IMG/VR virus record: IMGVR_UViG_2651869781_000017
Coordinates: 1 to 51,682 of that record
From: a virus
Taxonomy: Duplodnaviria > Heunggongvirae > Uroviricota > Caudoviricetes
Direction: 5' to 3' (one strand)
DNA length: 51,682 nt
The notes under the pieces: generated by a model
What the model was told of the DNA's origin: nothing
The model's database searches: none
What the model saw: only the letters and a program-made list of their open reading frames with translations
Program-made: the position numbers and the translations under genes
Shown: piece by piece, positions 1,369 through 18,527 of the stretch
Position numbering within the stretch: position 1 is the first letter of the stretch
Layout of the letters: each line of letters begins with the position of its first letter

Positions 1369-1444
1369 GCCGATATAGCTCAGTTGGTAGAGCAGCGCAT
1401 TCGTAATGCGAAGGTCGGAGGTTCGACTCCTCTTATCGGCACCA
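1369..1444 (+). tRNA. thrW: tRNA-Thr (anticodon CGT)
   Basis: 76-nt sequence GCCGATATAGCTCAGTTGGTAGAGCAGCGCATTCGTAATGCG...GGCACCA with cloverleaf-compatible arms and CGT anticodon; immediately 3' of proA. Confidence 0.9.
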
Positions 1445-9976: not shown

Positions 9977-10138
9977 TTATTCGCATCGCATGACAACATC
10001 AAATTTTTCGAGATTACTTTGTCGCAACAATCCTTCTTCGACGCGGTCAGCTTTTCTATAATTATCAAATTCGAAATGTTTAATTACTTCTTTCGTTTCT
10101 CGCTCTATAACTTCAACGATGTATTTCTTATTCATCAT
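9977..10138 (-). CDS. hypothetical small protein (53 aa)
   Basis: ORF with ATGA overlap to the upstream gene stop. Confidence 0.3.
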   Translation of the reverse strand: MMNKKYIVEVIERETKEVIKHFEFDNYRKADRVEEGLLRQSNLEKFDVVMRCE

Positions 10139-10425
10139 TCTTCCCAAAGAGCTTTGCTGATTGCTGACTGTGCTTTCGATACTTCATCAGGATAATGGTC
10201 ATTCCAGTTTTGCTTGTATGCCTTGTTTAGCATCGCTTGCAGGGCATTTAAAAGGTCAGGTGCTGCCGCTATTAGATTGGCATCTTCAATGCATTGAACT
10301 TCCTCACAGATTGCAATATACGAACGCCAGCCTGCGCCATTTTCAAGTGAGTCTGCCTGGATGATTTTAATCTCATCGCCATCCATCATTATTTCCCACT
10401 TACCTTCGGTACCTTTAAATTCCAT
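10135..10425 (-). CDS. hypothetical protein (96 aa)
   Basis: ORF in pL operon. Confidence 0.4.
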   Translation of the reverse strand: MEFKGTEGKWEIMMDGDEIKIIQADSLENGAGWRSYIAICEEVQCIEDANLIAAAPDLLNALQAMLNKAYKQNWNDHYPDEVSKAQSAISKALWEE

Positions 10426-10464
10426 GTTAGCCTCTGTTGTTTATGCCAAAAATAAAGGCCACCA

Positions 10465-10716
10465 TCAGGCAGCCTTGTTGTAAATGTTGCAGGTATCAAG
10501 TAAGTAATTAGATGGAGCGCCATAAATTATGAATTCATCGTTTGTCGGGTCCATCTCCATCTCTTGGCCTATTGCCATTCTTGCGTCAGTGTCATCAGCG
10601 GCGAAGCATAAAACAGCCCACGCACCCATTGTTTTAAAAAGAACTGCAATTGGCTGTGGTTTTACTGAATTTGCGTTAGCGCGAAAATCACAAATCGCAC
10701 TTTCATGAAATTCCAT
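10465..10716 (-). CDS. hypothetical protein (83 aa)
   Basis: ORF in pL operon. Confidence 0.4.
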   Translation of the reverse strand: MEFHESAICDFRANANSVKPQPIAVLFKTMGAWAVLCFAADDTDARMAIGQEMEMDPTNDEFIIYGAPSNYLLDTCNIYNKAA

Positions 10717-10724
10717 ATCTCACC

Positions 10725-10889
10725 TCAAATAAGTGGTTTGCCGCGAAAATAAATACGTTCCCACCAAGTTCCGTATCTATCTATCCAGTTACACCAATCA
10801 TCGACACTCCATTTTGTTGTGTCGCATTTTGGCAATTGGCATGAATATCTACCTTCTTTGTAAAGTCGGCGTTTGACTTTCTTGAGCAT
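10725..10889 (-). CDS. hypothetical Cys-rich small protein (54 aa)
   Basis: ORF MLKKVKRRLYKEGRYSCQLPKCDTTKWSVDDWCNW... immediately downstream of N. Confidence 0.3.
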   Translation of the reverse strand: MLKKVKRRLYKEGRYSCQLPKCDTTKWSVDDWCNWIDRYGTWWERIYFRGKPLI

Positions 10890-10897
10890 GGCTCACC

Positions 10898-11203
10898 TCA
10901 ATCGTAATAAGCTGGAATTGATTTTCCGCGTCGCTTCTGGCGGCCTGAGCAGGTCACACCCATTTCACTGCGTGGCTTGCGGTAGTAAATACGGTTCTGT
11001 TTACGCTCAACTTCTTCTGCCTTCTTGCAGCGAAGGCTTCCTAGTGATGCTGCTTTGTCTGCTCTGACGCAACCAGAGAGCTTTAGCGCAATTTTTCGCG
11101 CCAGTCGCTGTTCTTGCATTGCCTGCTCACGTTGAGCCTGTCTGCGTGCTCTGCGGCGATTTCTGGCGTTATCGTCAGCCAGATATGTAATGACTACTGC
11201 CAT
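10898..11203 (-). CDS. N: antitermination protein N (P22 gene 24 equivalent)
   Basis: 101 aa; N-terminal arginine-rich motif; C-terminus ...GVTCSGRQKRRGKSIP matches lambda N ...GITCSGRQKIKGKSIP; GGAGG RBS. Confidence 0.85.
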   Translation of the reverse strand: MAVVITYLADDNARNRRRARRQAQREQAMQEQRLARKIALKLSGCVRADKAASLGSLRCKKAEEVERKQNRIYYRKPRSEMGVTCSGRQKRRGKSIPAYYD

Positions 11204-11310
11204 GTTGACCTCCGATGATTGACTTTGGCGGTGACGCGCCGGGTGCTTATCTTCCGGTTGCCGTCGTGCAGCTGCACTTCACGTCACCCCAAAGCCAACT
11301 ACTCTTTGGT

Positions 11311-11352
11311 TCCCGCATTTCGGCGGGACAATCCCATCAATGTTAAAGAGCC
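11311..11352 (-). promoter_or_regulatory. nutL (boxA GGCTCTTTAA plus boxB hairpin)
   Basis: On minus strand boxA-like GCTCTTTAA followed 14 nt later by hairpin TCCCGC-CGAAAT-GCGGGA, identical to the hairpin at nutR. Confidence 0.7.
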
Positions 11353-11399
11353 TGCCAATCTGTTCCGTTTGGCTTCCAGCGTCCTGCTGATGGCTAAAG

Positions 11400-11484
11400 A
11401 ATACTGTAGGTATTTTATTGTGTAAATACCAAAGGTATTTATTTTTGATGAAATAATGATAAACAAATGAATACAAAGGATATT
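11400..11484. promoter_or_regulatory. OL operator cluster (three AATAC-N5-GTATT sites) with pL
   Basis: Palindromes at 11400-11414, 11425-11439 and 11470-11484 (third has one mismatch); same motif as at OR. Confidence 0.65.
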
Positions 11485-11570
11485 TATTTTTTTGCTGTCT
11501 GCTTGTTCAGTGATTTTTATGCGGGATATGTGAAGTGGATCCCGATAGCTATTGCTGCCGGGATTATGGG

Positions 11571-11939
11571 TTAGTCAGCGAAGGTTAAGACGAGAATTAC
11601 CTTAATGATGTCTGCTACAACAGACACGGCCATAGATAAACCAAAGACGATCCAAGCCACAGTGATGTCTTCACTACCATCGTATAGAGTTCCGTAATCA
11701 CTGGTGTAAGGCGTAAATGTCGCGCCTTGATACAATAGGTATAAGCTTGATCCATAGAGGATAAATGCAGATATCCCTTGTATTGCTATGATCACAAGAA
11801 TCATGAAACGAGCTGATCTATGCGCCCAAGCCTGGCTTATTTTTTCTGATAGAGATTTCGCAATAAAAGCATGCGCTAAGCCGTAAATTGTCGAGATTGC
11901 CAACATCCCAAAAAAGCTTGCTATAGCGGTTCCAACCAT
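11571..11939 (-). CDS. small multi-pass membrane protein co-transcribed with cI (rexB-position cargo)
   Basis: About 122 aa from ATG 11939 (129 aa if the TTG at 11960 overlapping the cI stop is used); four hydrophobic segments; AAGGGG RBS. Confidence 0.6.
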   Translation of the reverse strand: MVGTAIASFFGMLAISTIYGLAHAFIAKSLSEKISQAWAHRSARFMILVIIAIQGISAFILYGSSLYLLYQGATFTPYTSDYGTLYDGSEDITVAWIVFGLSMAVSVVADIIKVILVLTFAD

Positions 11940-11956
11940 AAGCGCCCCTTGCGTGA

Positions 11957-12673
11957 TCAAACCAGCCTTAGTTTTGTCTCAATTGCAACGCCTATAATCT
12001 TGCAGTTTCCATTGATTGGCACGAGAGGCCATGCAGGGTTAAGTCCCTTGAGGTATTTATTTCCGCCGTCGATTATCAGCTTCTTGAATGTTGCTTCGTT
12101 AGAGTCAGAAAGTTTTGCTATGACCAAGCTGCCGTTGATCGCCTCCCTTCCGGTATCGAAAAGAACGAATGTTCCCTCTGGAATGCTTAACCCAACCGGT
12201 GCCGTCATTGAATCACCTTCCACTTTAAGCCAGAACGCATTACCTTGAATATGCGCGTCAGACTCAAGCCAAACATCTATGTCTTTAATGGTGTATGGTT
12301 CGCATGCTTCACACCACGAGCCAGCCTGGATACTGCTTAACACCGGATACCTCTTTCCTGCTCTGTATTCCCCTGCATACCTTACGTTGGCATCGCTCTT
12401 AAGGCTTTCTGCCTGTTCTGCAACCTTGGCAGCAATTGACTGGCTAAAATCAGCAATTGAGACTTGCAACAGTCGTGCAAAACCAGATGCAACCTCAACG
12501 TTTAGCGCGTTTCTGCCATTAAGATAATGCCCTACCGCTCCTTGGGTGATACCCAGTTCATCAGCGATTGAGTATTGGGTTATTCCCAATTCTTTCTTTT
12601 TTGACTCATACAAAGCCTTAAGCCGCTTAGCGTCTTCGAGCTGTTCTGTCGTCAGTGATTTTTTATTTTCCAT
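11957..12673 (-). CDS. cI: CI-type prophage repressor (HTH_XRE plus S24 LexA-like peptidase domain)
   Basis: 238 aa; N-terminal HTH (QYSIADELGITQGAVGHYLNG) and C-terminal S24 self-cleavage domain; divergent from cro across operator region. Confidence 0.88.
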   Translation of the reverse strand: MENKKSLTTEQLEDAKRLKALYESKKKELGITQYSIADELGITQGAVGHYLNGRNALNVEVASGFARLLQVSIADFSQSIAAKVAEQAESLKSDANVRYAGEYRAGKRYPVLSSIQAGSWCEACEPYTIKDIDVWLESDAHIQGNAFWLKVEGDSMTAPVGLSIPEGTFVLFDTGREAINGSLVIAKLSDSNEATFKKLIIDGGNKYLKGLNPAWPLVPINGNCKIIGVAIETKLRLV

Positions 12674-12708
12674 AGCTTAATTCTAATAGCTAAGGTACTT
12701 AAACTAAA

Positions 12709-12748
12709 AATACCCTGAGTATTGATTGCTTTGAATACCTGTAGTATT
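12709..12748. promoter_or_regulatory. OR operators (AATAC-N5-GTATT palindromes) with divergent pRM/pR
   Basis: Sites at 12709-12723 and 12734-12748, 25 bp centre to centre, between the cI and cro starts. Confidence 0.7.
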
Positions 12749-12779
12749 CTTTGTTCATGGTTAATAACGGAGAGTGCAT

Positions 12780-12974
12780 ATGATTCGAATGACACTTGCC
12801 GATTACGCCAAAATCCATGGACAGGCTAAAGCAGCCAGTGACTTTGGTGTAATCCAGTGCGCTATCAGCAAGGCCATTCTGGCAGGCCGTAACATCATGG
12901 TTACGGTAAAGCCTGATGGCAGTGTGATTGGAGAGGAAGTTCGTCCTTTCCCAAGCAACAAGAAAAACAAATAG
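12780..12974 (+). CDS. cro: Cro repressor (lambda Cro fold)
   Basis: 64 aa [33 protein letters not shown]...FPSNKK closely parallels lambda Cro; GGAGAG RBS. Confidence 0.85.
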
Positions 12975-12980
12975 TAACAC

Positions 12981-13024
12981 CGCTCTTTAACAGTCATGGT
13001 CCTCATTCCCGCCGAAATGCGGGA
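12981..13024 (+). promoter_or_regulatory. nutR (boxA CGCTCTTTAA plus boxB hairpin)
   Basis: boxA consensus-like CGCTCTTTA followed 16 nt later by TCCCGC-CGAAAT-GCGGGA hairpin; located between cro and cII. Confidence 0.7.
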
Positions 13025-13082
13025 ATACAACGCGCATAAGTTGATGCGCATAACTTCTTATTTGTTAAGGAAATACTTACAT

Positions 13083-13361
13083 ATGCAACTTACAAGTACT
13101 CGCAAGAAAGCGAATGCAATTACAAGCAACATCCTAAATCGAATTGCTGTACGTGGTCAGCGAAAGGTTGCCGACGCGTTAGGGATTAATGAATCGCAAA
13201 TTTCGCGATGGAAAGACAGCTTTATCCCAAAGATGGCCATGCTTCTGGCTGTACTGGAGTGGGGTGTTGAAGACGAGGAGTTGGCGGAACTGGCTAAGAA
13301 AGTAGCCAGAATGCTGACAAAAGAAAAAGCCCCGAAGAACGGCGAATTCTTCGAGGCCTGA
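13083..13361 (+). CDS. cII: CII transcriptional activator
   Basis: 92 aa; ...SQISRWKDSFIPKMAMLLAVLEWGVEDEE... matches lambda CII (SQISRWKRDWIPKFSMLLAVLEWGV); AAGGAA RBS. Confidence 0.85.
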   Translation: MQLTSTRKKANAITSNILNRIAVRGQRKVADALGINESQISRWKDSFIPKMAMLLAVLEWGVEDEELAELAKKVARMLTKEKAPKNGEFFEA

Positions 13362-13395
13362 TGTAGAAAGACTGGATCAATCCACAGGAGTAATT

Positions 13396-14040
13396 ATGAC
13401 ATACGAAAATGACAAATTCCAGGTTCTGAAGAGCATGAAGGTGCCAGATGATTTTAAATCAAATGGCTTTGTTTATGTGCTTTCGAATGAGTGCATGCCA
13501 GGAATTTATAAGATTGGGATGACTAAGCATTCACCAGAAGTTAGGGCTAAAGAAATTTCAGCCTCTACTGGCGTTCCTAAGCCATTTAAGGTGATAGCAG
13601 CCTTTCATTCAAATAATCCCGCATCAGATGAAAAACTCATTCATAAAGCCTTTGCAAAAGAGAGGCTTAGTGATAATCGAGAGTTTTTCAAGCTTGAAGA
13701 TAATGATCTTTCTGAATCTCTAAATGAAATAAGGGCGCTGGTTGGCCCTGAAAGAAATGGCGAGACGGCAGAATACGCAATTTACGACTCATTCATTTCT
13801 TTTCGCCATGAAAATGAGCTTGATCTTAATGAGGAGCTTATAGAGCAAGGTCTGGGTAGTGTAGTTGGTCATCTTCCTGCGGTGAAAAATTTCCTTATTC
13901 GCGCCGGAATTGCTTACGCGAAGCAACTGATAAGCAAATATAACTCATCGATAGTTATTAATACAGATGGCAGTGTGGTGATGGTTAAGTCTCTTGAAGC
14001 CCAATGCTTTGATGCGGAGGTTGGAAATGAGCCTGGCTGA
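13396..14040 (+). CDS. T5orf172-domain (GIY-YIG-like) protein; moron between cII and O
   Basis: 214 aa; N-terminal GFVYVLSNECMPGIYKIGMTKHSPEVRAKEI...REFFKLE matches the T5orf172/GIY-YIG-like signature; AT-rich compared with flanking genes. Confidence 0.6.
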   Translation: MTYENDKFQVLKSMKVPDDFKSNGFVYVLSNECMPGIYKIGMTKHSPEVRAKEISASTGVPKPFKVIAAFHSNNPASDEKLIHKAFAKERLSDNREFFKLEDNDLSESLNEIRALVGPERNGETAEYAIYDSFISFRHENELDLNEELIEQGLGSVVGHLPAVKNFLIRAGIAYAKQLISKYNSSIVINTDGSVVMVKSLEAQCFDAEVGNEPG

Positions 14041-14893
14041 AGTATTTTACCTGCCGAAGAGTGAACCTGTTGAACAGGAGCGAAGAGTGGCTGATATCGA
14101 TGATGGTTACACCAGATTCGCTAACGAGCTGCTGGAAGCTATCGCAAGTGCCGATTTAACCGCTCGCCAGTTGAAAGTTATGCTGGCCTACGTCCGGAAA
14201 ACATATGGATTCAATAAGAAAACAGATCGAATAGCCGATGAGCAAATTGCTCAGTTAACAGGACTGTCAAGGCAGAATGTTAACAAGGCTAAAAAAGAAC
14301 TGATTTCAATGAATTGCCTGTTTATGGATGGAAATCAAATCGGTGTAAACAGTGAGGTATCTGCGTGGCAATTCAGCAAGTGTCTCCAAGTTAGCAACTT
14401 TGTCTCGAAGTTAGAGACAAAAAATGTCTCCAAATTAGAGACACTCAATGTCTCGAAGTTAGAGACACTCAATGTCTCGAAGTTAGAGACACACAAAAGA
14501 CATTCTTTAAAGACAAAAGAAAATATTAATAAACCCCCTATATCCCCCAAAAAAGTTTCTCAGAAGTTCGACCCGCTAGAAACAGAGTTGCCTGATTGGT
14601 TATCAGCAGAAACATGGTTCTCGTGGGTTACCTATCGCAAGGAGATAGGTAAGTCGATCAAGTCTAAGCAAAGTGTCACTCAGGCTATCAACGTTCTAAG
14701 CAGAAGTCTGGAGAAGGGATATACACCTGAAGAAATTATAAACCAGAGCATCGCCAGTGGTTGGCAGGGGATTTTTGAGCCCAAGACTCCAAAGGGGAAA
14801 TCTCAACCGAGGCCGCAGCATCGAGCTATGCAGGAAAACTTTGCCACTAAAGATTACGGACAAACTGAAATGCCTTCATGGGCGCAGGAGTGA
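14027..14893 (+). CDS. O: replication initiator O (lambda O-like)
   Basis: N-terminal domain resembles lambda O (ADIDDGYTRFANELLEA...RQLKVMLAYVRKTYG); ori iterons lie inside the gene, as in lambda. Confidence 0.8.
   Translation: MSLAEVFYLPKSEPVEQERRVADIDDGYTRFANELLEAIASADLTARQLKVMLAYVRKTYGFNKKTDRIADEQIAQLTGLSRQNVNKAKKELISMNCLFMDGNQIGVNSEVSAWQFSKCLQVSNFVSKLETKNVSKLETLNVSKLETLNVSKLETHKRHSLKTKENINKPPISPKKVSQKFDPLETELPDWLSAETWFSWVTYRKEIGKSIKSKQSVTQAINVLSRSLEKGYTPEEIINQSIASGWQGIFEPKTPKGKSQPRPQHRAMQENFATKDYGQTEMPSWAQE
14381..14560 (+). repeat. phage replication origin: five 22-24 bp iterons (TGTCTCGAAGTTAGAGACA...) plus A/T-rich tract inside O
   Basis: Five tandem iterons, each with internal GTCTC..GAGAC dyad, at 14381-14496, followed by an A-rich segment. 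Confidence 0.75.
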
Positions 14894-14895
14894 AC

Positions 14896-15741
14896 ATGAC
14901 GCTGGATGAAAAGATCTCCCAACTGGAGAAAAAACTTGCAGAATTGAGTTCTCCGCCAATTGCTATCGAGCATACATCTGTAGAAATTGGCACTGGCATC
15001 TGTGAAAAACATGGTGAGTTTGAGCAGCGTAACCGTTACTCGACTGGGCCAATTAAGTTTGCCTCAAGACCTAGCGAATGCCCGGAATGCATGAGAGATG
15101 AGCTTATTCGGCTACAGGCAGAGAAGATTAAAATCGACGAGGAATCACGTAAGCGCAATGTCGAGTTTCTGTTGAATAATCTTGATATTCCTGAACGATT
15201 CAAGGGTTGCACACTACAGAACTACGAGCCAGTCAACGACGATGCAAAGAGAGTGCTCAGGGTGTGTCAGGCATACGCCAGCAAATGGCCTGAGAGGTTA
15301 CAGAAAGGCGGTGGGCTGGTTATGTGTGGAAAGCCTGGTACTGGAAAGAATCATCTTGCACTGGCTATCGCCCGGCACGCAATTACGGAACATCAAAGCT
15401 CAGCTATTTTCACAACGGCGCTGAAAATTGCCAGAGAATATAAATCAACATGGTCGAAAAACTCCACCCGCACAGAGGATGAAGTGATCCGACAGTTCAC
15501 TAAACCTGACCTGCTAATTATCGATGAGGTTGGTGTGCAGTTTGGAAGCGAGGCGGAAAAGATGATCATGTTCGAAATCATCAACACCCGCTACGAGCGC
15601 ATGAAGCCAACAATCCTGATTAGCAACCAGAGCAAAGATGAACTGTCTGCATTCATTGGTGAGCGTGTTATTGACAGGATGAATGATGGCGGCGGGTGCA
15701 CTCTTGCGTTTACATGGGATAGTTACAGGAGCAGATCGTGA
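14896..15741 (+). CDS. DnaC/IstB-like AAA+ helicase loader
   Basis: Walker A GKPGTGKNHLA and Walker B LLIIDEVG; position downstream of O. Confidence 0.75.
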   Translation: MTLDEKISQLEKKLAELSSPPIAIEHTSVEIGTGICEKHGEFEQRNRYSTGPIKFASRPSECPECMRDELIRLQAEKIKIDEESRKRNVEFLLNNLDIPERFKGCTLQNYEPVNDDAKRVLRVCQAYASKWPERLQKGGGLVMCGKPGTGKNHLALAIARHAITEHQSSAIFTTALKIAREYKSTWSKNSTRTEDEVIRQFTKPDLLIIDEVGVQFGSEAEKMIMFEIINTRYERMKPTILISNQSKDELSAFIGERVIDRMNDGGGCTLAFTWDSYRSRS

Positions 15742-16028
15742 CTGGAAAAGAAATCATCCTGGAATATCTGAAAACTCATGAACAATTCTCCCCACATGAA
15801 TTAGCACTGATCACCGGAATACCAAATAACAGAATCGCTCAAGCAGCAAGGCATATGGTGAAACAAGGACATTTGAGTGTTGTTGAGCGTAAGTGGAAGA
15901 CGGTTATTTATGCAAAACGCAAAGTGAAGAAGGAGCCAATTAAAAGAAATCCAGATGGTACGGGGTGGGGATGTGCAAATCCAATGACGGCGTTTATTAA
16001 TAGGGCGCTTATGGAGGTAAGGCAATGA
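15738..16028 (+). CDS. hypothetical protein (96 aa, possible winged-helix)
   Basis: ORF overlapping the upstream gene stop (ATGA-type coupling). Confidence 0.4.
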   Translation: MTGKEIILEYLKTHEQFSPHELALITGIPNNRIAQAARHMVKQGHLSVVERKWKTVIYAKRKVKKEPIKRNPDGTGWGCANPMTAFINRALMEVRQ

Positions 16029-16101
16029 CCATCTACATCACTGAGCTAATAACAGGCCTGCTGGTAATCGCAGGCCTTTTTATTTGGGGGAGAGGGAAGT
16101 C

Positions 16102-16542
16102 ATGAAAAAACTAACCTTTGAAATTCGATCTCCAGCACATCAGCAAAACGCTATTCACGCAGTACAGCAAATCCTTCCAGACCCAACCAAACCAATCGTA
16201 GTAACCATTCAGGAACGCAACCGCAGCTTAGACCAAAACAGGAAGCTATGGGCCTGCTTAGGTGACGTCTCCCGTCAGGTTGAATGGCATGGTCGCTGGC
16301 TGGATGCAGAAAGCTGGAAGTGTGTGTTTACCGCAGCATTAAAGCAGCAGGATGTTGTTCCTAACCTTGCCGGGAATGGCTTTGTGGTAATAGGCCAGTC
16401 AACCAGCAGGATGCGTGTAAGCGAATTTGCGGAGCTATTAGAGCTTATACAGGCATTCGGTACAGAACGTGGCGTTAAGTGGTCAGACGAAGCGCGACTG
16501 GCTCTCGAATGGAAAGCGCGATGGGGAGATCGGGCTGCATGA
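16102..16542 (+). CDS. ninB: NinB (Orf-family recombination mediator)
   Basis: MKKLTFEIRSPAHQQNAIHAVQQILPDPTKP... is essentially lambda NinB as remembered. Confidence 0.85.
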   Translation: MKKLTFEIRSPAHQQNAIHAVQQILPDPTKPIVVTIQERNRSLDQNRKLWACLGDVSRQVEWHGRWLDAESWKCVFTAALKQQDVVPNLAGNGFVVIGQSTSRMRVSEFAELLELIQAFGTERGVKWSDEARLALEWKARWGDRAA

Positions 16543-17066
16543 CTATCAAATCAAATACGCCAGCACACGACAAGGACTGCTGGCAAACGCCGCTTTGGCT
16601 TTTTGATGCACTGGATATTGAGTTTGGATTCTGGCTGGATTCGGCAGCGAGCGACAAAAATGCTCTGTGCGCTCACTGGTTAACTGAGGCCGACGACGCG
16701 CTCAATTCTGAGTGGGTAAGCCACGGTGCAATCTGGAATAACCCACCGTACAGCAATATCAGGCCGTGGGTAGAAAAAGCCGCTGAGCAGTGCATACAAC
16801 AGCGACAGACGGTAGTGATGCTTGTGCCAGAGGATATGTCAGTCGGATGGTTCAGCAAGGCTCTGGAGAGCGTTGACGAAGTTCGCATCATCACTGATGG
16901 ACGGATTAATTTTATCGAACCATCGACGGGGCTGGAGAAGAAGGGAAACAGCAAAGGCTCAATGCTGCTGATTTGGCGACCGTTCATCAGTCCTCGACGG
17001 ATGTTTACTACCGTATCCAAAGCGGCATTGATGGCGATCGGGCAGGGCGTCAGGAGGGCGGCATGA
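16539..17066 (+). CDS. phage DNA N6-adenine methyltransferase
   Basis: NPPY catalytic motif (IWNNPPYSN) and DCWQTP N-terminus typical of phage N6A methylases; ATGA overlap with ninB. Confidence 0.7.
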
Positions 17067-17239
17067 GACGACAGCGACGAAGTATCACCGACATAATCTG
17101 CGAAAACTGCAAATACCTTCCAACGAAACGCTCCAGAAATAAACGCAAGCCAATCCCAAAAGAATCTGACGTAAAAACCTTCAACTACACGGCTCACCTG
17201 TGGGATATCCGGTGGCTAAGACATCGTGCGAGGAAATAA
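17063..17239 (+). CDS. ninE: NinE
   Basis: [23 protein letters not shown]... matches lambda NinE. Confidence 0.75.
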
Positions 17240-17241
17240 CA

Positions 17242-17643
17242 ATGCTTTTAATTCAACCTGGATTTGGCCTTAGCATCAAAAAAGGGCACATGTTTGGCGA
17301 GAAAGAGTCTCAACGAAAAATGGTGTCGATACAGTTGCCATTTATCAGTATTTATTGGCTAAACAGGGAGGCAACAAATTATTGGTATACATGCGCCAGA
17401 GCAGCATTTAACGACCCTGACTGGTTTGTGAAAAACCACCACGCAGTTCGTCAGGCAAAGAGAAAGGCCAATACGACATACATGAAGGCGTATCGAAAAG
17501 CATGGAAAGAACACCGCGATCGATACCAACAAGACATGGAAAAGCTTGAATCAGAAAACATGGAATTAAGACGAAAGCTTGGTGAAGCAAAACGAGACAT
17601 TGATGCTTACAAGCGACTTTTTAATGGTGAAAGCCATGCTTAG
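17242..17643 (+). CDS. hypothetical nin-region protein (133 aa)
   Basis: ORF with GAGGAA RBS 6 nt before the ATG; C-terminal coiled-coil; no recognisable family. Confidence 0.4.
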   Translation: MLLIQPGFGLSIKKGHMFGEKESQRKMVSIQLPFISIYWLNREATNYWYTCARAAFNDPDWFVKNHHAVRQAKRKANTTYMKAYRKAWKEHRDRYQQDMEKLESENMELRRKLGEAKRDIDAYKRLFNGESHA

Positions 17644-17812
17644 TCCATCCCAATCCCTTCAATACCAGAAAGAAAGCGTCGAGCGGGCTTTAACGTGCGC
17701 TAACTGCGGTCAGAAGCTGCATGTGCTGGAAGTTCACGTGTGTGAGCACTGCTGCGCAGAACTGATGAGCGATCCGAATAGCTCAATGTACGAGGAAGAA
17801 GACGATGAATGA
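17636..17812 (+). CDS. ninF: NinF
   Basis: MLSPSQSLQYQKESVERALTCANCGQKLHVLEVHVCEHCCAELMSDPNSSM... matches lambda NinF. Confidence 0.8.
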   Translation: MLSPSQSLQYQKESVERALTCANCGQKLHVLEVHVCEHCCAELMSDPNSSMYEEEDDE

Positions 17813-18527
17813 GTTAATAAATGGCAATGCCATCAAAATGACAAGCATTGAAATCGCTGAGTTGGTTGGTAAGCGTCATGACAATGTGAAACGTACCATC
17901 GAAACGCTGGCTAAAAATGGTGTTATCCGGCTTCCTCAAATTGAGGATTGTGGAAGAATCAATGGGTTAGGCTTAAATCAAAGTTTTTGTGTGTATGTAT
18001 TCGAAGGCGAACAAGGAAAGCGAGACAGTATTGTCGTTGTAGCCCAGTTGTCGCCGGAATTCACCGCTCGTCTTGTTGACCGTTGGCGAGAGCTTGAAGA
18101 AACTGCGGTTAATATCCCAAAAACGCTACCAGAAGCGTTGCGCCTTGCTGCTGACCTTGCTGAGCAGAAAATGCAACTGGAAAACCAGCTCGCAATTGCC
18201 GCACCTAAAGTTGAGTTTGCCGATCGCGTTGGCGAGGCCAGCGGAATTTTGATTGGAAACTTTGCAAAGGTTGTTGGAATTGGTCCAAACAAACCGTTTG
18301 CGTGGATGCGCGATCACAAAATCCTTATTGCTTCAGGTTCCCGGCGCAATGTGCCAATGCAGGAATATATGGATCGCGGCTATTTCACAGTGAAAGAAAC
18401 AGCGTTCAACACAAATCACGGAATACAGATATCGTTCACCACAAAAATCACCGGGCGTGGTCAACAGTGGCTGACCAGAAGGCTGCTCTATAGCGGAATG
18501 CTGAAAGTAACAGGGGAGGCTGCTTAA
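17805..18527 (+). CDS. Rha-family phage regulatory protein / antirepressor-like
   Basis: N-terminal Rha-type motif (MTSIEIAELVGKRHDNVKRTIETL) and antirepressor-type C-terminal region. Confidence 0.6.
   Translation: MNELINGNAIKMTSIEIAELVGKRHDNVKRTIETLAKNGVIRLPQIEDCGRINGLGLNQSFCVYVFEGEQGKRDSIVVVAQLSPEFTARLVDRWRELEETAVNIPKTLPEALRLAADLAEQKMQLENQLAIAAPKVEFADRVGEASGILIGNFAKVVGIGPNKPFAWMRDHKILIASGSRRNVPMQEYMDRGYFTVKETAFNTNHGIQISFTTKITGRGQQWLTRRLLYSGMLKVTGEAA

Follow-up and report, generated by a model that had tools for sequence, protein, structure and literature searches.

In textbooks, lambdoid phages serve as the model for how genomes evolve as mosaics. How the sharp joints between their modules originate and are maintained is largely inferred, and in the prophage described here a gene with a nuclease-type domain sits exactly at one of these joints, between cII and the replication module. 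What is this gene, how does it come to occupy the joint, and what might it do there? The window referred to below is the whole stretch of viral DNA that was analysed, 51,682 nucleotides in length.

A nuclease-family gene between cII and O

The window is occupied by a P22/lambda-like prophage whose immunity and replication genes run in the order cI-like repressor, cro, cII, nuclease-type ORF, O and DnaC/IstB-like helicase loader, followed by ren-like and nin-region genes (Table 1). At the left end, the tRNA-Thr gene and the adjoining 386-aa ORF probably mark the attachment site and the prophage border; judged by its position, this minus-strand ORF is probably the integrase gene. Directly downstream of the repressor gene, a 129-aa hydrophobic ORF on the minus strand (11571-11960) occupies the position of immunity-region accessory genes such as HK620 hkaS and lambda rex. 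The number of origin iterons in O differs among near-identical prophages (variation noted across L084, L088 and L092): the window and L092 have four, visible in the protein as VSKLET repeated four times, most relatives have three copies, and L088 has fewer.

Table 1. Features of the prophage and of comparable loci in other phages. Positions refer to the window unless another locus is named.
Feature	Position	Strand	Details
tRNA-Thr (CGT) gene	1369-1444		prophage left end; adjoins 386-aa ORF
386-aa ORF	1459-2619	minus	adjoins tRNA-Thr
cI-like repressor	11957-12673	minus	
cro	12774-12974		
cII gene	13083..13361	+	92 aa from ATG 13083; Pfam Phage_CII 3.8e-42; left neighbour of the slot
Terminator-like hairpin and T run	13327..13359	minus	terminator scan, 14-pair stem; overlaps cII 3' end
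Linker conserved in filled and empty genomes	13362..13401	+	ACTGGATCAATCCACAGGAGTAATT plus ATGACA; ribosome site AGGAG 13386-13390, start codon
T5orf172/GIY-YIG-family gene	13396..14040	+	214 aa, ATG start
670-bp cassette	13402..14071	+	takes the place of 42 nt at the 5' end of lambda-type O; comparison with N7 and four E. coli prophages
Nuclease-fold domain, aa 24-112	13465..13731	+	motifs GFVYVL, GIYKIGMT, Arg50, Glu79/His83, REFF (Glu96)
Acidic family-specific C-terminal domain, aa 116-214	13741..14037	+	predicted a1-b1-a2-long a3-b2-b3-a4
Cassette-borne O start	14016..14071	+	GGAGG 14016-14020, ATG 14027, alternative 15-codon O N-terminus (MSLAEVFYLPKSEPV)
Replication initiator O	14027..14893	+	ATG 14027; Pfam Phage_rep_O 3.5e-36
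Origin iterons within O	14401..14496		four TGTCTC-N6-GAGACA copies, 24-bp spacing (repeat search)
DnaC/IstB-like helicase loader	14878..15741	+	next replication-module gene; Pfam IstB_IS21 1.8e-18, Bac_DnaA 2.6e-08
HK639 gene 53	L168 2098-2502		134-aa unrelated ORF; no Pfam match
HK620 hkaW	L169 3197-3343		short ORF, starts at ATGACA
mEpX2 gp47	L170 3197-3358		short ORF, starts at ATGACA

The initial annotation, made by reading the sequence, described an AT-rich 214-aa ORF with a T5orf172-type N-terminal domain between cII and O, and these points hold. The ORF is present exactly as described, with Pfam matches to Phage_CII upstream and to Phage_rep_O downstream, and its N-terminal part scores far above the Pfam gathering thresholds for both T5orf172 (PF10544; aa 24-112, 2.3e-15, 57.4 bits against a cut-off of 20) and MUG113 (PF13455; aa 38-111, 4.3e-16, 59.7 bits against a cut-off of 22.3). 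The reported overlap with O is likewise real: the stop codon (14038-14040) falls 14 nt inside O, an overlap that is annotated in the same way in RefSeq and in the record of phage Bas106. The GC content of the ORF is 40.6% (35.3% at third codon positions, GC3), against a GC content of 45.3% for the window; cII, O and the helicase loader lie at 43.5-47.3% GC and 46-50% GC3.

The product is identical or near-identical to RefSeq WP_000220586.1 and to Bas106_0049, and such copies occur in 19 complete E. coli genomes, in phage Bas106 (a culturable phage of the BASEL collection, whose copy is 99% identical) and on 13 IMG/VR contigs, alongside diverged homologues. Given these copies and homologues, the ORF is, on sequence grounds, a real gene, and a dN/dS of about 0.09 indicates strong purifying selection. 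The product is labelled 'GIY-YIG nuclease family protein' in RefSeq and 'hypothetical' in the Bas106 record; an NCBIfam search gave no informative match, and the matching PHROG families carry no functional assignment. A search of the literature on a lambdoid cII-adjacent GIY-YIG gene, on PDC-S57 and on Bas106 found no paper specific to the nuclease gene.

The nuclease domain has the GIY-YIG fold; in structure it comes closest to SLX1 and HIGLE, both structure-selective nucleases, and no sequence similarity to solved GIY-YIG proteins was detectable. Tyr27, Tyr38/Lys39/Gly41, Arg50 and Glu96 (in REFF) are invariant across 22 homologues of 34-100% identity, and catalytic roles are assigned to these residues by motif position and not from an inspected structural alignment.

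The C-terminal domain, which the initial annotation had singled out for identification, could be assigned to no known family; it is an orphan confined to this gene family, in every member of which it is acidic. Searches against Pfam, PDB and BFVD returned no match, no known DNA-binding fold was matched, and a cysteine-rich motif is absent from the protein. The predicted topology resembles a winged helix and the long helix is basic, a resemblance that is only suggestive. An Odn-like design, with a targeting domain taken over as a copy from the initiator, was considered and rejected, the profile of the C-terminal domain matching that of O with an hhalign probability of 0.4%. In one metagenomic ORF (P0034), the last ~65 residues of the C-terminal domain are fused in frame to O (…DAEVGNRQLEVFYLPKSEPV…), apparently by a frameshift in the 14-nt overlap; the fusion may be natural or may stem from misassembly.

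A cassette that replaces the start of O

Junction alignments of 16 loci that carry the nuclease gene (filled) and five that do not (empty) define the element. Filled and empty genomes share a linker downstream of cII, which reads ACTGGATCAATCCACAGGAGT(A/C)ATT and runs into ATGACA. ATGACA is where O begins in empty genomes (MTNTAKILNF..., the same as in lambda) and where the nuclease gene begins in the window (MTYEND...); the latter gene uses the ribosome site and start codon that belong to O where the slot is empty. The two kinds of genome become homologous again from 14072 (GAACAGGAGC), the equivalent of codon 17 in lambda-type O. From the shared left linker and this right-hand border it follows that the element is a 670-bp cassette replacing 42 nt of O up to and including codon 16, which amounts to its first 15-16 codons. 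The final codons of the nuclease gene hold the replacement ribosome site and start of O, and the same arrangement of the O 5' end is found beside a 70%-identical homologue (L095).

Phage N7 shares its cII and its O (96.7% identical) with the window and has no insert between the two, and mEpX1 also matches the window O only from 14072. As in N7, cII immediately precedes this O in 28 E. coli prophages, and the gene is extra at this position relative to lambda-type genomes, as had been proposed. The proposal of an insertion stands as far as extra DNA is concerned; it was not a plain insertion, since the cassette has removed 42 nt of O. Nor was it a one-off event, the slot being recurrently variable and the nuclease family adjoining initiators across the Enterobacterales. 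Copies of the nuclease gene that are 98-100% identical adjoin two cII sequence types, a lambda-like one and a second one, and at least seven cII-like types are found beside the gene once more diverged relatives are included. That near-identical cassettes abut two cII types identifies the conserved linker as a recombination joint.

The O type of the window is present in 47 complete E. coli genomes, 19 of which carry the nuclease gene together with the alternative O 5' end, while the other 28 have neither. The alternative 5' end is found in all 19 carriers and in none of the 28 non-carriers, which match only from 14072 onward, so that gene and alternative O 5' end are perfectly linked. The cassette is thus an optional element heading the replication module. 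Downstream of 14072, O is 98.6-99% identical between filled and empty genomes, and a search for a co-conversion signature in this part of O found no fixed differences between filled and empty alleles. What would have overturned the initial annotation did not turn up: the domain is confirmed, the gene is optional (19 of 47), and it is not known to act in replication. A related prophage in E. coli C 236-04A (L003; NZ_CP109924.1 1503768-1544412) has a frameshifted O pseudogene and an IS2 element near the repressor gene, yet an undamaged nuclease gene; this gene can survive after the replication function beside it is lost.

The designation of the gene as a moron fared less well. Of the features by which Hendrix and colleagues define morons, extra DNA of deviant composition is present, and a promoter and terminator of its own are not: no promoter-like or terminator-like sites flank the nuclease gene on the plus strand, the former ribosome site of O is used, and the gene is coupled to O in the early rightward (pR) operon. 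In the absence of flanking plus-strand sites, the element is better described as an in-operon, translationally coupled cassette than as a classical moron. For the same reason, expression is expected only when the pR operon is active, and, judged from its position, the nuclease should be made only upon infection or induction, alongside and coupled to O.

The left joint also touches an antisense site. The terminator-like hairpin on the minus strand occupies what is presumably, judged by position, the place of the terminator of the lambda oop antisense RNA; an Rfam search over 10000-18000 found no oop-like RNA and gave one sub-threshold chance match inside the iterons. The sequence ATTATG (13393-13398) reads CATAAT on the minus strand, the -10 hexamer of an oop-type promoter. 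The cassette keeps this -10 hexamer and the hairpin, and the -35 region changes from TTGAGT in N7 to TGGAAT with the 17-nt spacing kept (13393-13421, minus strand). With the -35 region replaced, the amount of anti-cII RNA may differ in cassette carriers.

A family confined to one slot

The nuclease gene belongs to a family of coherent two-domain proteins of ~200-250 aa in prophages of the Enterobacterales, with hosts that include Escherichia, Klebsiella, Enterobacter, Cronobacter, Pantoea, Pectobacterium, Cedecea, Providencia and Morganella. The ~75 loci examined (36-100% identity) all have the gene immediately 5' of the initiator gene and on the same strand, with a gap of -74 to +12 nt and one exception at +116. 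The initiators fall into at least six N-terminal sequence types, several of which share no Pfam domain, and comprise two Phage_rep_O subtypes, an HTH_36/DnaT type, the MARSRNIKPGFF type and others; upstream, the regulator is either a YdaT-like protein or a cII of one of several types. A gp53-like ORF lies between cII and the nuclease gene in Salmonella phage S107, where the latter still abuts the initiator. In the MARSRNIKPGFF-type lineage, the cassette border falls exactly at the initiator ATG, and a replaced target segment is therefore not seen there. Among the ~75 loci, the family was never seen at another genomic position, and this confinement gives no sign of transposition to new sites.

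In a neighbour-joining tree, agreement between the nuclease clades and initiator type is loose, and cII type is freely reassorted. A strict co-variation of initiator type with the nuclease or the C-terminal domain, a pattern that would point to a specific partnership, was considered and is unsupported: the agreement in the tree is loose, and C-terminal domains that go with different initiator types can share 76% identity. Conserved gene order is expected in lambdoid genomes and by itself is no proof that the gene is functionally bound to replication. Within the initiator genes, C-terminal tails are shuffled independently of the N-terminal DNA-binding type (L099-L130; …KDYGQTEMPSWAQE, …HWNSREGWEDFL, …DLDFNNTDWAYGVIR), and presumably match the type of the downstream helicase loader; this is another sharp mosaic joint, this one inside a gene.

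The cII-initiator slot also varies in known phages, being occupied by hkaW in HK620, gp47 in mEpX2 and an unrelated ORF in HK639. The HK620 and mEpX2 products are 48-53 aa in length and annotated as similar to gp53 of HK022/HK97, and all three slot ORFs overlap or abut the initiator start.

What the cassette might do

The function that we favour, with a probability of roughly 0.45, is that of an early-lytic DNA endonuclease serving in conflict between related phages in a manner akin to homing endonucleases. The protein would be an active DNA endonuclease, produced early in the pR operon together with O. Its target would be a related lambdoid genome that lacks the cassette and shares the same cell, and the DNA of this rival would be cut. 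The simplest site for the cut would be in or close to the conserved sequence of the lambda-type O 5' end and the oop promoter, which the cassette has replaced in the genome of the carrier. If the break were then repaired from the cassette-bearing copy, or if the rival were lost, the cassette would gain, and with it the linked replication module. The C-terminal domain would set the choice of target and, being acidic overall, may do so through a protein partner instead of acting as a classical basic DNA-binding domain. The conserved motifs, the exact presence/absence pattern, the replacement of native sequence, the left recombination joint and the essential-gene neighbour all point in this direction. 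Several observations pull the other way: the acidic C-terminal domain has no known DNA-binding fold, while 87% of surveyed T5orf172 homing-endonuclease genes carry zinc-finger DNA-binding domains (CapR, DUF723 or DUF4397; PMC10448857), the MARSRNIKPGFF-type lineage shows no replaced target segment, the flanking part of O lacks a co-conversion signature, and the fixed genomic position could reflect a role tied to replication.

Such a role is the subject of one of the alternatives, in which the nuclease would act on the phage's own DNA with the initiator or replisome, nicking or processing the origin or replication intermediates (a switch from theta to rolling-circle replication, or forks and junctions) after recruitment through the acidic C-terminal domain. 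The invariable location directly upstream of the initiator in ~75 loci, even with an ORF between cII and the gene in S107, the restriction of the C-terminal domain to initiator-adjacent contexts and the structural resemblance to SLX1 and HIGLE are consistent with it, and we consider it unlikely. Slightly less probable still is a broader version, in which the family would be a dedicated partner of lambdoid replication modules whose C-terminal domain docks the nuclease on a replisome- or initiator-associated protein, either nicking the phage's own DNA as the trigger of the theta to rolling-circle transition or destroying rival replicons as they assemble replisomes. To our knowledge, this transition has long been without an explanation. 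Also in favour of the accessory role, SLX1, one of the structural matches, depends on a protein partner, SLX4 (PMC9071465). Alternatively, the nuclease could help the phage against satellites, nucleic acids of host defence or host DNA, benefiting the phage and not spreading selfishly; ICP1 Odn employs a T5orf172 domain in this way (PMC8263062), and purifying selection, wide retention of the gene and an acidic targeting domain suited to protein recognition would agree with such a function. That we nevertheless think it rather unlikely reflects the fact that no Odn-type chimera was found when the C-terminal domain was compared with O (hhalign probability 0.4%) that broad cleavage of host DNA would clash with a lysogenic outcome, which is decided while the operon is expressed, and that no candidate target emerged.

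Two further explanations dispense with early-lytic cleavage. The gene could act mainly as a translated leader that sets the translation of O and changes the oop promoter, or its product could be a CapR-like DNA- or protein-binding regulator, and it is true that unrelated ORFs of 48-134 aa in the same slot overlap or abut the initiator start, that the oop-type promoter has a different -35 region in the presence of the cassette, and that CapR of PLE, a domesticated T5orf172 protein, provides a precedent. A coupling leader, however, needs neither 214 codons at a dN/dS of 0.09 nor catalytic-motif residues that are invariant across homologues of 34-100% identity, and we give a non-enzymatic role little credence. 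Least plausible is a defence moron that protects the lysogen, expressed from the prophage and destroying superinfecting DNA in the manner of PD-lambda-1/SNIPE or the PADLOC candidate PDC-S57. The AT-rich composition and PADLOC matches to PDC-S57 (6.4e-29) and PD-Lambda-1 (8.6e-12) could be taken in its favour; however, PADLOC matches the nuclease domain only (model positions 3-93 of 212 for PDC-S57 and 355-449 of 496 for PD-Lambda-1), so that a defence-system assignment by this route was rejected, and the gene, devoid of a promoter of its own, lies in the cI-repressed pR operon, both of which weaken the case. The protein also has no transmembrane segment and no DUF4041, both required by SNIPE.

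The cassette, present in ~40% of otherwise identical replication modules and equipped with its own replacement O start, could actively drive exchange at the joint it occupies. If it does, the idea that nucleases mark exchange boundaries would extend from lytic Vibrio phages to temperate coliphages. The orphan C-terminal domain may reveal a new mode of targeting for a GIY-YIG nuclease. These proposals are directly testable, Bas106 being culturable with the gene and N7-type phages providing natural partners that lack the cassette.

T5orf172 homing-endonuclease genes have been described as free-standing genes beside essential genes and at exchange boundaries in ICP1, T5-like and other phages (Barth, Dunham & Seed 2023, PMC10448857). 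The gene in the window resembles them in its T5orf172 catalytic domain, its small free-standing form beside an essential gene (a class that includes replisome genes), its sporadic occurrence and its location at an exchange boundary; it differs in lacking a cysteine-rich motif, in its orphan acidic domain, and in residing as a single copy in one slot of temperate lambdoid phages. As expected of a homing gene, presence is sporadic between near-identical alleles, with 19 filled against 28 empty genomes and an exact border at 14072. On a second mark of such genes, an altered native sequence at the insertion point that would give self-immunity, the lineages diverge: the alteration is seen in the O lineage of the window and is not seen in the MARSRNIKPGFF-type lineage. 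A recognisable sequence-tolerant DNA-binding module was not found in the acidic C-terminal domain. Accessory DNA-binding modules of the GIY-YIG homing endonucleases T4 Seg and I-TevI are basic, and the accessory domain of the window protein, unlike those of these proteins, is unrelated and acidic.

Another comparable protein is Odn (Gp88) of ICP1, an origin-directed nuclease whose T5orf172 domain is aimed at a satellite (PMC8263062). Both are T5orf172 nucleases tied to a replication module and have a second domain proposed to act in targeting, and they part ways in the origin of that domain, which in Odn copies the DNA-binding domain of the satellite initiator and in the window protein is unrelated to O. 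SNIPE (PD-lambda-1), the product of a host defence gene, is a membrane-anchored protein of ~500 aa with DUF4041 (PMC13190303); it has a homologous nuclease domain and illustrates how a non-specific GIY-YIG nuclease is made specific by an accessory domain or by cellular location, whereas the window protein is much smaller and has neither a membrane anchor nor DUF4041, and its gene is no host defence gene. The other occupants of the slot (hkaW, gp53 of HK97/HK022, mEpX2 gp47 and HK639 gp53) share its position and its contact with the initiator gene, and hkaW and gp47 also share the left joint at ATGACA; they are unrelated, shorter proteins with no recognisable domain. The gene is thus best filed with the known phage T5orf172 nuclease genes, what is new being its orphan C-terminal domain, its single fixed locus in temperate lambdoid phages and its built-in replacement start for O.
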